From: a virus
UHGV virus genome: UHGV-1483955
Length of the DNA stretch: 64,000 bases
Reading direction: 5' to 3' (one strand)
Made by a program: the position numbers and the translations under genes. Each line of letters starts with the position of its first letter. Within the stretch, counting starts at the first letter, position 1. Positions 36,709 through 64,000 of the stretch are shown piece by piece. The notes beneath the pieces are model-generated. The model saw only the letters and a list, made by a program, of their open reading frames with translations. It searched no databases and was not told where the DNA came from.

Positions 36709-36725
36709 TAATTTATTAGAGCAAT
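36709..36725 (-). promoter_or_regulatory. C1 operator (rc ATTGCTCTAATAAATTA) upstream of coi-c1 operon
   Basis: 16/17 match. Confidence 0.7.
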
Positions 36726-53004: not shown

Positions 53005-53021
53005 ATTGCTCTAATTAATTT
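53005..53021 (+). promoter_or_regulatory. C1 operator-like 17-mer ATTGCTCTAATTAATTT upstream of ssb
   Basis: 16/17 match. Confidence 0.7.
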
Positions 53022-59305: not shown

Positions 59306-61221
59306 GCCGCTACCCCCGCTTTCTGGATTGCTACCAACAGATCAGCCAGGTGGCGAGCTGCGCCGTTAACCAGCTCTTCGTTTTCCTCAAAACGTCCGGC
59401 AGCCTGAAGGGCTGCAATCGCTTCCCGGACATTGCCCCGGGCGTTACGGATCTCCGCCATGTCAGTGCTTTGCATATCCATCACGTTATTGAGATATTCA
59501 ATGGCTTTATTAGCCTCTGCATCTGCTTCGCTAACCGTTTCATCAGGCTGTGCCGGGGCCGGTTCTGGCTGAGTAATCTCACCGACTTCGGCCTGCAATG
59601 CATTGATCATGCTCTGCACCATTTTCTCGGTGCCTGCGCCCCCAGGAAACGCAATATTGGGGAAAGTTTTTTGAAACTGAGTTTTCAGCATTACGCGGAA
59701 CTCGTCTGGTGAGCTGGTGGCCAGCTCCAGAGCTTTTTGTGCATATTTGCCAAACGGACCATTAGTAAGTGTCTTCGCCAGGAAATCGAAAGAATCCTCG
59801 CGAGGCAATAACTTCAGGTCGTACTCACTCATTTGCTGATCAGAAAGCGGGGTATCGTAAGTAGCAATGCCGTAGCGTGCATATTCATAATACGGGTCAC
59901 CTTCATCAGGGCGCGGCAGAATTGCTTTGTTACCTTCAGGTATTGCGCCAGGGGCCGCCGGACGCATTTGCAGGGCATATCGATATGCACCTACAGAGAC
60001 TTCTGGTTCAGGCGAAGAGCTACCGGTATCCTCCGCTGGTTCAGGTTCGACGTTTTCCGGTTTATGTTCTTCTGGTTGGACCAGGTATTCCGATACATTA
60101 CCCGCTTTATAGGCTTTAAACAGCTTGCGGATTGCATCTGCCATGTCCACACCCTGTATGGATTTAGCCTTGATCATGTATACGCTGCCATCCGGATCGG
60201 TTAACTGGATATACCCTTCGCCATCCCCAATGAATTGCTTCATTGATGCACCATTACTGAGCGTCGCTTCACCGTCCATATGCATGCGATTTTTGATACT
60301 GGCAAGGCGATCCGTCAACGCGCGTGAGTGCCCACCAGTTATTGCCACTGGAGCAATGGTATCGCGCCCACCTGTTCGATTGAGCTGATCAATCTCCGCC
60401 TGCAAACGCTCATTCTCTTCATAAAGAGAATCCGCTTCCGAGGCGACCGCGTTAATTTTCTGCTCCAGATCTGCCTTCTGCCCTTCTACCACTGCCACCT
60501 GATCCGCGAGGTCGCTCATGGCATCCTCTTTCTGGTCACTGTCAGCCTGTAGTTGGGTTATTTCATCAACCAGGGCTTTTTTCTTCTTCTGCGCACGCTG
60601 GAATTTTGCCGAGTTTTTCTCTGCAAGGTTGGCAAGTTTCATGGTGACCTGCGCCAGCGTCATATCACGTCCACTCATCGGAGCAACGGTGTGAGTAACG
60701 TCTTTTTTATTCAGTAAGAACTGGAAAGCAACCAGCGTATCGCTATTGGTGATCCGGTTTTCCGCTGTCGGGCTATGAAACAGAATGCTGATAGTCTGAC
60801 CATCACTGAGCGGAATAATGGCTGGCAGGACCGGCAGCCCGTTAACGTTCCGTGCCCGGCCAATTTCAGCACCGCCGATCGCGCGCGCGCCGCTCTGGGC
60901 CACATCCCCCGTTTTATCACTCCCCGCAGAGATTCCGGTACCATTCAGCTTCTGGTTCAATGCCCGGACAAATGCCTGCATGGTCCGGTGTAACTGCAAA
61001 CGAGTAGAACTAATCGCCTCCAGTAAATCCGTAGCACACCAGTGGATCGGCGTGTCATAGAAGAACGTAGCCTCGATTTCCTCCAGGGTGTTGGATTCCG
61101 TCATCAGATAGCGGTCCTCACCGGCCATTAATGCGCGATATTCATCATCAGTCACTGGCGGGGGAAGCACGTCAAGCCCAGGCTTGATCGTCACCCCTTT
61201 ATTGATATTGAACTGTTCCAT
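59302..61221 (-). CDS. darA: antirestriction protein DarA (639 aa)
   Basis: Size and operon context (lydA-lydB-hdf-darA-ddrA-ddrB) match recalled P1 dar operon. Confidence 0.7.
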   Translation of the reverse strand: MEQFNINKGVTIKPGLDVLPPPVTDDEYRALMAGEDRYLMTESNTLEEIEATFFYDTPIHWCATDLLEAISSTRLQLHRTMQAFVRALNQKLNGTGISAGSDKTGDVAQSGARAIGGAEIGRARNVNGLPVLPAIIPLSDGQTISILFHSPTAENRITNSDTLVAFQFLLNKKDVTHTVAPMSGRDMTLAQVTMKLANLAEKNSAKFQRAQKKKKALVDEITQLQADSDQKEDAMSDLADQVAVVEGQKADLEQKINAVASEADSLYEENERLQAEIDQLNRTGGRDTIAPVAITGGHSRALTDRLASIKNRMHMDGEATLSNGASMKQFIGDGEGYIQLTDPDGSVYMIKAKSIQGVDMADAIRKLFKAYKAGNVSEYLVQPEEHKPENVEPEPAEDTGSSSPEPEVSVGAYRYALQMRPAAPGAIPEGNKAILPRPDEGDPYYEYARYGIATYDTPLSDQQMSEYDLKLLPREDSFDFLAKTLTNGPFGKYAQKALELATSSPDEFRVMLKTQFQKTFPNIAFPGGAGTEKMVQSMINALQAEVGEITQPEPAPAQPDETVSEADAEANKAIEYLNNVMDMQSTDMAEIRNARGNVREAIAALQAAGRFEENEELVNGAARHLADLLVAIQKAGVAA

Positions 61222-61222
61222 G

Positions 61223-61834
61223 TTAATTTCCTGCTTTCAGTTGCTTAAGACGGCGTTTGAGTTCGCCATTTCGGGCCTTTTCGTTATTGAGTCGGCCTGT
61301 CTCCTTATCCAGCTTCGCCCGCAAATCAGTGATCTGCTGTTGATTGAAAGACACCGAGTTCTGCGCTGATTTATAAGCGGCAACCACCTGAGCATTCCGC
61401 TGTTTTGCCTCTTGCAGGCGCTGAAAGTTGGATTTTACTGCCGGTTTCTTGTCTACCGGATTGGCAACACGTTTCGCTTTGGCGATCAGTGATTTCTGGA
61501 ATTTTGCGGAGTTTTTGCGGGCCGCTTGCCCCATGACGGTACCAAGCGTCTTGATATCCGGCGACTGAGCGTTAGGAATAGCTTTTCCATTCAGCCTCAC
61601 AGACGATATATCGCCAGTATCGTTTACCTGTATGGCAAGAATTTGTCCGTCGTTAAGAACCAGCTTTGCGGTTTTAACTTTAACGCCATCTTTCGTTGTT
61701 GCGCGGTTGCTGGAGTCAACCTCAATTACCGTAACACCGGTTTTATTGATCGCCGCGATAAGGGATTTCAGCCCCTTTTCATTAACCTGGTCAAAATCGA
61801 CCGTTGCATACTTATTTTTCGTCATCTGACACAT
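61223..61834 (-). CDS. hdf: darA-operon protein with basic coiled-coil C-terminus
   Basis: 203-aa ORF immediately upstream of darA. Confidence 0.5.
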   Translation of the reverse strand: MCQMTKNKYATVDFDQVNEKGLKSLIAAINKTGVTVIEVDSSNRATTKDGVKVKTAKLVLNDGQILAIQVNDTGDISSVRLNGKAIPNAQSPDIKTLGTVMGQAARKNSAKFQKSLIAKAKRVANPVDKKPAVKSNFQRLQEAKQRNAQVVAAYKSAQNSVSFNQQQITDLRAKLDKETGRLNNEKARNGELKRRLKQLKAGN

Positions 61835-62255
61835 CCTGTGCGAGATTTATTACGTAACTTCTGCGGATTTGCTGAGTAACAGGGAAAATCCGATACAACG
61901 GGTTAATGAACGAGTCGCCATGCGTAACCATGACGTTGAAATGCCACAGTCGCTCTCCTTTACCCATATAATCAGTGGGTATGTACAACCATTCACTGTT
62001 TTCGCCCTGTTCAGCCGACGTCAAACAACGTTGTTCGCCTTCAATCACTGTCGTCGGCTTCTGAACATCGCGGATCCAATATCTGACCGTTGCGCCGCGC
62101 AAAAACGGGAATTTAGACCGGTATTTGAACGGCACCCGGATGAAACCCGGTTTAATTTCCACATCACCAAGTTCTAAATGCGTGATGTCCTTGCGTTTTA
62201 GCAAATAGCGATCGGCTAAGGCTAACGCAAGAACGCATACACCCCAGCCAATCAT
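61812..62255 (-). CDS. lydB: putative antiholin / lysis regulator
   Basis: 147-aa ORF overlapping holin-like gene stop. Confidence 0.55.
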   Translation of the reverse strand: MIGWGVCVLALALADRYLLKRKDITHLELGDVEIKPGFIRVPFKYRSKFPFLRGATVRYWIRDVQKPTTVIEGEQRCLTSAEQGENSEWLYIPTDYMGKGERLWHFNVMVTHGDSFINPLYRIFPVTQQIRRSYVINLAQDVSDDEK

Positions 62256-62581
62256 TTCCCGCCTCCCTTTTTCACCAAACTTGTAAGAACATTCAGAATG
62301 CTATCGATATTCACTCGTTTCATCCCTGAAATCACCTCATGACCGTTATTGCTGGCTATCGTTACCATTAAGTACGTAATTGATAACTCCCAGCCCTCGT
62401 GTTGCCCCAATAGGTACGCCACCGCGCCAGCTGTCACTGCAACAAAGATCTCCGTAACCAATCCCAACAAATTGCCAGACTGGCGACCGTCTCGGACATC
62501 CATCAGGAACGTGCCTATCCCACCAATTACTGAAAGCAGGAGCGCAATAGCAACTGGAGCTAATTCCTGTGTGTCAAGCAC
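62252..62581 (-). CDS. lydA: holin-like membrane protein
   Basis: 109 aa with multiple TM segments, first gene of operon. Confidence 0.6.
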   Translation of the reverse strand: MLDTQELAPVAIALLLSVIGGIGTFLMDVRDGRQSGNLLGLVTEIFVAVTAGAVAYLLGQHEGWELSITYLMVTIASNNGHEVISGMKRVNIDSILNVLTSLVKKGGGK

Positions 62582-62655
62582 AAGTTCCCTCCTACGTTGT
62601 CAGGAGGTAATGGTATGCAAAGTAACTTCTCAACCGGTTATGTTGCATAAGAGAC

Positions 62656-62919
62656 TTACCTATTCAACCGACTTTTGGAACCTTCAATAATAAGCCTGCT
62701 ATTGGCGCTGAAAATAAGAACCATGCAGCTCTGAAGGCTTTCATTCATGTCCTTATATTCCGCGAGATACATGCCAATAAAGCCAGCAAGTACGGCGGAA
62801 ATACATTCGGCCAGCAATTTCTTGCATGAAGACTCGTAACGGTTTTCACATAGCCCACTCAAATACGAATACACCCCACCAAGAAGGGATAACATCACGA
62901 TATGTACATAAAATGTCAT
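62656..62919 (-). CDS. small membrane protein (87 aa)
   Basis: Two hydrophobic segments; between cin region and lydA. Confidence 0.4.
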   Translation of the reverse strand: MTFYVHIVMLSLLGGVYSYLSGLCENRYESSCKKLLAECISAVLAGFIGMYLAEYKDMNESLQSCMVLIFSANSRLIIEGSKSRLNR

Positions 62920-63046
62920 TTTTTACCTATACAACAGTAAGTTGAACAACATTTGAGAACGGTATGCACTTTGTGATTTCCACACACACTGGTTTTGTTA
63001 ATTAAAACCTGTAGCTTGCAATAAATAACGATAGTGGGCAGAAAAT

Positions 63047-63233
63047 ATGCTAATAGGCTATGTACGCATATAGACAAATGAACAAAACACAGCTATGCAG
63101 TGAAAAGCACTTGAAAGCGCAGGATGTGAGCTAATTTTTGCGAATAAGGCGAGCAGCAAAAAAGCTGGGCACCCTGGGTTAAAAAAGGTTCTGCGTATGC
63201 TTTCCAGAGGTGATACCCTAGTCTCGGACTAGG
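63047..63233 (+). pseudogene. degenerate N-terminal fragment of a Cin/Hin-family serine invertase
   Basis: Reads MLIGYVRI*, then TNEQNTAMQ*, then ALESAGCELIF..AGHPGLKKVLRMLSRGDTLV across frames, paralleling intact Cin N-terminus. Confidence 0.6.
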
Positions 63234-63354
63234 GACAACATTTCGAGAACAGTTTTCATTAGCGGTCAGCAGGCGCTAGATACATCGAATTGATGTGCCG
63301 CGCGATAAATGTACCTATTCTATCAAGATAAATTACACCGACGCGGCATTAGAA

Positions 63355-63927
63355 TTACAGCTCAGATTGAGTTTGGCGCTTCTCTACAGGATGATAACGA
63401 TAAATCGTCGATACACCGATATCGTAAATAATTGCCAACTGTTTCCTGCTGTAGCCATTTTCGATCAACCTCGCTATTTGCTCATGTTGTTCTTTTGTCA
63501 ACTTCGGGCGACGTCCGCCAATGCGTCCCTGTTCGCGTGCAGCTGCCAGTCCGGCCAGTGTTCTCTCAACAATTAATTCACGTTCCATTTCTGCTAAAGC
63601 ACCCATGACATGAAAAAAGAAACGCCCCATGGGTGTTGATGTGTCAATACTGTCTGTCAGACTACGGAAATTAACACCTTTTTCCCGCAACTCCTCTATA
63701 AGCGTGATAAGGTGTTTCATACTTCTGCCAAGCCTATCCAGCTTCCAGACAACCAGCGTATCTCCTTCTGATAACGTTCTGAGCAGCTTTTTCAAGCCTG
63801 GTCTGGCTGACTTTGTTCCGCTTATTTTATCTTCAAAAATCAGTTCACATCCTGCGCAGTTCAGTGCATTTCTTTGTAAATCTGTGTTTTGGTCATTTGT
63901 TGACACACGAATGTAGCCAATTTGCAT
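63355..63927 (-). CDS. cin: Cin DNA invertase (serine recombinase)
   Basis: MQIGYIRVSTNDQNTDLQRNAL...LDRLGRS catalytic-Ser resolvase/invertase domain plus C-terminal HTH. Confidence 0.9.
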   Translation of the reverse strand: MQIGYIRVSTNDQNTDLQRNALNCAGCELIFEDKISGTKSARPGLKKLLRTLSEGDTLVVWKLDRLGRSMKHLITLIEELREKGVNFRSLTDSIDTSTPMGRFFFHVMGALAEMERELIVERTLAGLAAAREQGRIGGRRPKLTKEQHEQIARLIENGYSRKQLAIIYDIGVSTIYRYHPVEKRQTQSEL

Positions 63928-64000
63928 GAAAAACAACCTCTTTGTTTAGTTAAAAATACATCGTTGGTATAGGTAGGGATTAAGACTAAAACGTTGGTTT

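Follow-up and report, generated by a model that had tools for sequence, protein, structure and literature searches.

The 64,000-nucleotide stretch of DNA analysed here (the window) ends just beyond an intact serine DNA-invertase gene, and a reading of the sequence alone had placed beside this gene, at 63047-63233, the decayed beginning of a second invertase gene. The locus raises the question of where this beginning came from, and of whether it still has a function as protein, crossover site or enhancer. The invertase-like fragment is indeed present, and it is convergent with the intact invertase gene, which occupies 63355-63927 on the minus strand. It is very probably an inert pseudogene, the 5' stub of the original P1-type cin of this element, left behind by the replacement of a cassette.

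The window belongs to a P1-like phage-plasmid. Its minus-strand open reading frames have the size and order of P1 ddrB, ddrA, darA, hdf, lydB, lydA and lydC; the last of them reaches to 62919. With 0-3 mismatches allowed, the window has 15 matches to the consensus of the P1 C1 operator versus 0.24 expected by chance (examples lie at 4330-4346, 20529-20545, 36709-36725 and 53005-53021), which is consistent with P1-type immunity. Phage P1 carries tRNA genes, and the three tRNA genes of the window (5015-5087, 5093-5165 and 7169-7241), together with the 15 operator-like sites, fit a P1-like phage-plasmid. The spacer between lydC and the stub contains no C1 operator; P7 has one annotated upstream of lydC. 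The lydC gene itself (62656-62919) has 87 codons and is shorter than that of P1, which has a 282-nt coding sequence. By the annotation of the P1 record, this lydC is approximately 84% identical to the P1 gene and the adjoining lydA/lydB region approximately 99%, which implies a mosaic boundary between lydA and lydC.

Identity and extent of the cin stub

Comparison with P1 identifies the fragment as the 5' end of a P1-type cin. In a nucleotide search, P1 31570-31836 aligned to window 62958-63223 with 89.5% identity and one gap (E 3e-90), and the P1 annotation mapped onto this alignment shows that the matching stretch comprises the cin promoter region, the ribosome-binding site and codons 1-59 of cin, with the enhancer annotated at P1 31678-31749. 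The coordinates of the sequence-only reading are thus right for the coding part, but the homology adds approximately 90 bp 5' of the ATG, a remnant of the cin promoter and leader on the plus strand (62958-63046) that is also the upstream region of the divergent lydC. The coding remnant on the plus strand (63047-63223) starts with an ATG at 63047-63049 and has its final cin-homologous base at 63223, after the GTC of codon 59; the read-through stop codon of its frame is a TAG at 63230-63232, which agrees with the end originally noted at 63233. Over these 177 bases, 157 are the same as in P1 cin (88.7%) without an insertion or deletion, and 49 of the 59 residues of the predicted peptide are the same as in P1 Cin (83%, E 1e-34). 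The stub covers positions 2-68 of the 145 in the Pfam profile of the Resolvase N-terminal domain (PF00239, E 4e-9) and has no HTH_7 match in Pfam; the intact neighbouring gene has both domains.

The peptides of the stub had been described as lying in shifted frames, but all of them are read in a single frame, MLIGYVRI-stop-TNEQNTAMQ-stop-KALESAGCELIFANKASSKKAGHPGLKKVLRMLSRGDTLV, interrupted by two nonsense substitutions. The first changes codon 9 from TCA to TAG (63071-63073) and the second changes codon 19 from CGA to TGA (63101-63103). By alignment with Gin and Cin, codon 9 is that of the catalytic serine (Ser9). The missing two-thirds of the gene have no remainder anywhere downstream. A functional serine DNA invertase has an uninterrupted reading frame of approximately 185-190 codons that includes the catalytic serine, with the whole Resolvase catalytic domain and a C-terminal helix-turn-helix; the stub has none of these.

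The adjoining intact invertase gene was tried as the closest relative of the stub and rejected in favour of P1 cin. Alignment of the stub to the 5' end of the neighbouring gene, the check proposed with the sequence-only reading, is significant, but the nucleotide identity is only approximately 69-72%, and it follows that the stub is not a copy of that gene. The name cin, which had been given to the intact neighbour, belongs instead to the stub, as the remnant of the resident P1-type gene, and the neighbour is an incoming Min-type gene.

The probable module replacement and its junction

The extent of collinearity with P1 indicates how the stub arose. Window positions 59468-63223 align with P1 28070-31836 at 95.4% identity, collinear from darA to exactly 63223. 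The plasmid pMCR_SCKP-LL83 (L014), which is 100% identical to the window over 62900-64000, extends the comparison: in its sequence, collinearity with P1 is found again from P1 37095, a position within the constant part of the tail-fibre gene S and approximately 6 kb beyond the equivalent of 63223, and the only similarity to P1 in between is an invertase gene, inverted, with 71% identity. This is the intact gene of the window (63355-63927, minus strand), which encodes a Min-type serine invertase of 190 amino acids with Resolvase N-terminal and HTH_7 domains; the protein is exactly UniRef Q05517_ECOLX and occurs on at least 1000 contigs, and the 3' end of the gene has matches in 1,101 of 5,426 E. 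coli genomes. Its 5' end faces the invertible DNA, the opposite of the arrangement of P1 cin, and it carries an enhancer of its own, with matches to the Fis consensus at 63891-63905 (site I) and 63843-63857 (site II). The first crossover site of a multi-inversion region lies at 63980-64000 on the plus strand, with the core AAACGTTGGTTT at 63989-64000, where the end of the window cuts the site. Positions 7090-11586 of pMCR_SCKP-LL83 hold eight perfect copies of the core AAACGTTGGTTT in near-identical 30-bp contexts, two facing one way and six the other. Six crossover sites were reported for p15B, versus the eight of this relative of the window.

Because collinearity with P1 stops at codon 59 of cin and resumes in S, with a foreign cassette between, the stub can be read as the scar of a module replacement. 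There is strong support for the view that a foreign multi-inversion cassette took the place of the C segment, most of S and all of a resident P1-type cin beyond codon 59, and that the stub is the part of this cin left over; the direction of the replacement, with the P1-type module resident and the Min-type module incoming, is the one that this arrangement suggests. An ancestor organized as P1, with lydC pointing away from a divergent cin followed by cixL, the C segment and S, would have lost approximately 5.3 kb, from codon 60 of cin to the constant part of S, in exchange for a foreign tail-fibre variation cassette that would have brought an oppositely oriented Min-type invertase gene of its own, together with an invertible region of multiple sites. 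That the cin promoter region and 59 codons were kept would probably be due to their position next to the region upstream of lydC. The earlier proposal of a remnant of a second invertase gene from a past rearrangement is strongly supported by the breakpoints, by stop codons common to the carriers and by an even spread of substitutions.

Two observations concern the incoming gene and its cassette. The intact invertase gene is mosaic in two relatives of the window (L006 and L007), in which a divergent allele takes over at 63529 or 63646; the changes fall mostly on every third base, and the 3' end of the gene, the spacer and the stub are unchanged, a pattern that points to homologous exchange inside the gene. 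The chromosome NZ_CP027447 contains, at the very edge of a prophage beside hycI, a cassette closely related to the Min-type one, together with tail-fibre and assembly genes; the homology of this cassette to the window begins only at approximately 63287.

Homology searches divide the spacer that separates the stub from the stop codon of the intact gene (63224-63354) into three parts. Positions 63224-63229 are junction filler. The following segment, approximately 63230-63286, is common only to other P1/D6-like plasmids, among them NZ_CP086513 (L011), and a search for a donor of 63224-63286 found no homologue outside P1/D6-like plasmids. From approximately 63287 onward, the spacer corresponds to the 3' flanking sequence of Min-type cassettes, which occurs also in P88-like, P2-like and other prophages as well as the chromosomal prophage beside hycI. 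A palindrome spans the junction at 63216-63234, CCCTAGTC-TCG-GACTAGGG, with perfect 8-bp arms and a 3-nt loop, and its left arm is made up of the final eight cin-homologous bases. In the window, hairpins with perfect 8-bp arms like these occur at a frequency of 4e-4 per position, and position 63228 is polymorphic (A or G) among carriers. The palindrome may be the footprint of a hairpin or template-switch deletion.

These details raise a refinement of the replacement model, in which the junction would have formed in two steps: a remnant of approximately 102 codons, as in NZ_CP086513, would have come first, and a hairpin-associated deletion of approximately 135-140 bp would then have created the 59-codon junction. 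In NZ_CP086513, nucleotides 1-307 of cin are followed by the same right flank, with homology to the window from approximately 63230; chromosomal and P2-like cassette copies lack the segment 63230-63286, so that its sharing suggests a common junction region; and the perfect 8-bp palindrome sits exactly on the junction of the window. The argument from the palindrome is post hoc, however, and the stubs of NZ_CP086513 and the window share only one derived base (cin nucleotide 22). The 5' end of the former is D6-like whereas that of the latter is P1-like, and the two could be independent truncations on two backbones. A two-step origin is therefore a tentative possibility, somewhat doubtful on this evidence, and replacement of the module at codon 59 is the reading followed below, whether it took one step or two.

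Enhancer remnant, crossover sites and expression signals

The sequence-only reading had suggested that the fragment might retain an enhancer or a crossover site. Enhancers of DNA invertases consist of two Fis sites with centres 48 bp apart, both of which are required. When the Fis consensus GNNYAWWWWWTRNNC was scored at six key positions per site, P1 cin and the window's own invertase gene each gave exactly two sites, at nucleotides 23-37 and 71-85 of the coding sequence. The enhancer remnant of the stub (63065-63136, plus strand) is equivalent to P1 31678-31749 and identical to it in 62 of 72 bases. Fis site II (63117-63131, GCGCAGGATGTGAGC) is the same as in P1 and has six of six key positions, and the 48-bp spacing of the centres is kept. 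Fis site I (63069-63083) is TATAGACAAATGAAC in place of P1 TATCAACAAATGAAC; here the substitution of CA by AG at 63072-63073 removes consensus positions -4 and -3, leaving three of six key positions versus five of six in P1 cin and likewise in the intact invertase gene of the window. The same two bases create the TAG stop at codon 9. The proposed enhancer is thus largely retained in sequence and in site II but altered at two key positions of site I, and through site I the stub falls short of the pair of Fis sites that makes up a sis element. Because the Fis consensus is lost at site I, the enhancer of the stub is most likely inactive.

The suggestion of a retained crossover site did not hold. 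No cix- or mix-like site (an imperfect palindrome of approximately 26 bp with the core AAAC-N4-GTTT) occurs within two mismatches anywhere in the window, and the best score of a position weight matrix in 62900-63360 is -9, versus 35-50 for the eight real sites and -3.6 +/- 3.4 for shuffled sequences.

Even so, the stub might still act as a cis element. It could assist or modulate Min inversion as a further Fis-dependent enhancer, or it could have an architectural or insulating role between min and the lysis genes lydC-lydA-lydB, which are read in the same direction as min. With Fis site II intact and 62 of 72 enhancer bases as in P1, residual binding of Fis is conceivable, and the first crossover site is approximately 0.9 kb from the stub on the same molecule; the enhancer family needs both sites, however, site I is without its consensus positions -4 and -3, and the enhancer of p15B psi-cin is reportedly inactive. 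As for insulation, min is transcribed towards lydC, unlike P1 cin, and read-through might need to be stopped. No canonical terminator was found on the min-sense strand between min and lydC, and a weak antisense hairpin at 63107-63120, tried as a terminator or insulator, was rejected because it is also present in intact P1 cin and cannot be an adaptation of the stub. Nor is there extra conservation among the sampled relatives. Six relatives compared base by base (L002-L007) have 11 polymorphic sites in 62920-63354 (435 nt) versus four in the lydC coding sequence (264 nt); in this small sample the stub and spacer are no less polymorphic than lydC, and they give no hint of constraint. Across carriers the stub is 97-100% conserved, but its flanks are equally so, and the conservation of the stub therefore says nothing about selection. 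A role as a cis element is very unlikely. The same holds for the wider proposal that the stub, antisense between min and the lysis genes, is kept to tune Min inversion or to shield the holin genes from min read-through while the cin 5' end serves as a preferred joint for repeated host-range cassette swaps in P1-like phage-plasmids.

The substitutions fit an inert pseudogene better. Sixteen substitutions set the stub apart from the intact alleles of P1, P7 and D6. They are distributed 5/4/7 over the three codon positions, whereas the changes unique to an intact allele fall at the third position in four of four cases for P1 and 10 of 11 for D6, but in only three of seven for P7. Between the stub and P1, 10 codons differ with a change of amino acid and seven silently, versus 10 and 35 for the three pairs of intact alleles pooled (Fisher p = 0.013). 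By these comparisons the substitutions of the stub look neutral.

Signals for expression have also changed. The equivalent of the P1cin -35 hexamer (TTTCCA, 62977-62982) is conserved, but the -10 equivalent at 63003-63008 is TAAAAC (TAAAAT in P1), and the promoter spacer is 1 bp shorter than in P1. Just upstream, in a region of lower identity, the -10 equivalent of P2cin is CAACAT (TATCAT in P1), and the Shine-Dalgarno equivalent at 63036-63038 is GGG (GAG in P1). Both annotated -10 hexamers and the Shine-Dalgarno sequence of P1 cin are thus mutated, and the stub is probably not transcribed. A scan of the plus strand for consensus promoters, which found nothing, was dropped as evidence because it also misses the annotated cin promoters of P1. 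No Rfam family matches the stub region. After the replacement, the stub would have drifted, acquiring two nonsense codons and weaker expression signals and losing one Fis site; it would now yield no protein, provide no crossover site and most likely have no enhancer activity, and inversion would be run wholly by the neighbouring Min-type gene with its own enhancer.

Distribution and comparison with known cin remnants

A 151-nt probe that spans the junction has matches in 397 plasmid records. In 147 of these the junction is present in full length, with 97.4-100% identity; nearly all of the other approximately 250 matched plasmids, judged from a sample spread over them, match only to 63223, inside an intact cin. 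Among 5,426 complete E. coli genomes, 160 have the junction, and 164 of its 165 places are on plasmids. No annotated feature lies under the stub or junction among the matches listed.

This distribution bears on the reading in which errors of sequencing or assembly have disguised a functional gene, or in which the stub is a gene expressed by programmed read-through or recoding. The frame is uninterrupted by insertion or deletion over 59 codons, a point in favour of that reading, but the six relatives compared base by base all have both nonsense codons and the same truncation, the junction recurs in 147 plasmids and 160 genomes, one of the stops replaces the catalytic serine, and homology stops at codon 59 with no remainder downstream. 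These findings refute such a gene. Chance resemblance to invertases is dismissed by E values of 3e-90 for DNA and 1e-34 for protein and by a local alignment score of 76, versus 18.9 +/- 2.2 for shuffled sequences, even with the more distant neighbouring gene.

Stubs of cin are not confined to this junction. A search with the stub by itself turned up, in P1/D6-like plasmids, cin 5' stubs with other breakpoints that are likewise unannotated and fall into at least four more classes. In NZ_CP040069 the stub ends at approximately nucleotide 52 of cin and is followed by tail-fibre genes. Decayed remnants that reach approximately nucleotide 210-300 and have a deletion of 11-12 nt are followed by tail-fibre genes in CP063718 and by a gene for a glycine-rich-domain protein in NZ_CP097097. 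The tail-fibre genes beside the stubs of CP063718 (L008) and NZ_CP040069 (L010) are non-invertible, and no invertase is annotated near the stubs of these two plasmids or of NZ_CP097097 (L009). NZ_CP086513, with a D6-like backbone, has a frameshifted remnant to nucleotide 307, followed by the window-like flank from approximately 63230 and the same Min-type invertase protein. Like the stub of the window, the stubs of these four plasmids are unannotated 5' remnants of cin beside lydC/lydA with a replaced tail-fibre region, but their breakpoints differ. A "partial invertase orf" and a "delta-cin" have been noted for pSvP1 and pTZ20_1P (PMC6906374). Since cin stubs of other lengths exist, some of them before non-invertible tail-fibre genes, such replacements recur, which suggests that host-range or tail-fibre cassettes have been exchanged repeatedly at the cin 5' joint. 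As an evolutionary observation this recurrence is modest, and it involves no new mechanism. What is new here is mild: the stop at Ser9 coincides with the bases that appear to disable the enhancer, a longer relative of the stub occurs in D6-like plasmids, and cin stubs recur at this joint.

The stub is a molecular fossil of a widespread P1-like lineage that swapped the two-state tail-fibre switch of P1 for a multi-state Min-type switch, and resistance genes, mcr-1 among them, are present in many members of this lineage. The stub could be recorded as a pseudogene in place of the blank that annotation pipelines leave among the matches listed, and the breakpoint at 63223 is a handy marker that separates p15B-type from P1-type elements.

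Compared with P1 cin (AF234172, 31660-32220), the stub has the same promoter region, start and first 59 codons and the same position and orientation relative to lydC. P1 cin differs in being full-length and free of nonsense codons, whereas the stub ends at codon 59 and contains two, and P1 has cixL at the 3' end of cin, whereas the stub is without it.

The closest known counterpart is in p15B, the plasmid of E. coli 15T- with GenBank accession X62121. In 1991, Sandmeier, Iida, Huebner, Hiestand-Nauer and Arber reportedly described, in Nucleic Acids Research, a truncated 5' region of an invertase gene beside min, highly homologous to P1 cin, which they named psi-cin; its enhancer is said to be inactive and to regain activity upon substitution of two nucleotides. 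The CA to AG change at 63072-63073 makes these two bases the candidates for the activating nucleotides. Full-text literature searches, with the primary p15B papers outside their scope, found nothing on psi-cin, but the GenBank record of P1 (AF234172) makes a comparison possible. It gives 89% identity and a single gap between P1 31570-31832 and p15B nucleotides 7147-7408, and it also notes that the cin enhancer resembles p15B 6463-6533 and that lydC and the lydA region correspond to p15B 7483-7638 and 7728-8294, respectively. A single constant (p15B = 70366 - window) maps all four intervals onto the window: 7147-7408 becomes 62958-63219; 6463-6533 becomes 63833-63903, which is nucleotides 25-95 of the window's invertase gene; 7483-7638 becomes 62728-62883, inside lydC; and 7728-8294 becomes 62072-62638, in the lydA region. 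The match to P1 thus starts at the same base in p15B psi-cin and in the stub, with the same identity and the same single gap, and the distances to the min enhancer and to lydA/lydC agree base for base. According to a published report (PMC5786510), the p15B min region is present in pMCR_SCKP-LL83 with 99% identity. In both p15B and the window, a P1-cin-like 5' fragment lies between min and lydC/lydA, adjoining and convergent with min on its lydC side. By its sequence and mapped coordinates, the stub is in all likelihood the psi-cin relic of p15B-type P1-like plasmids, a feature that is already known.
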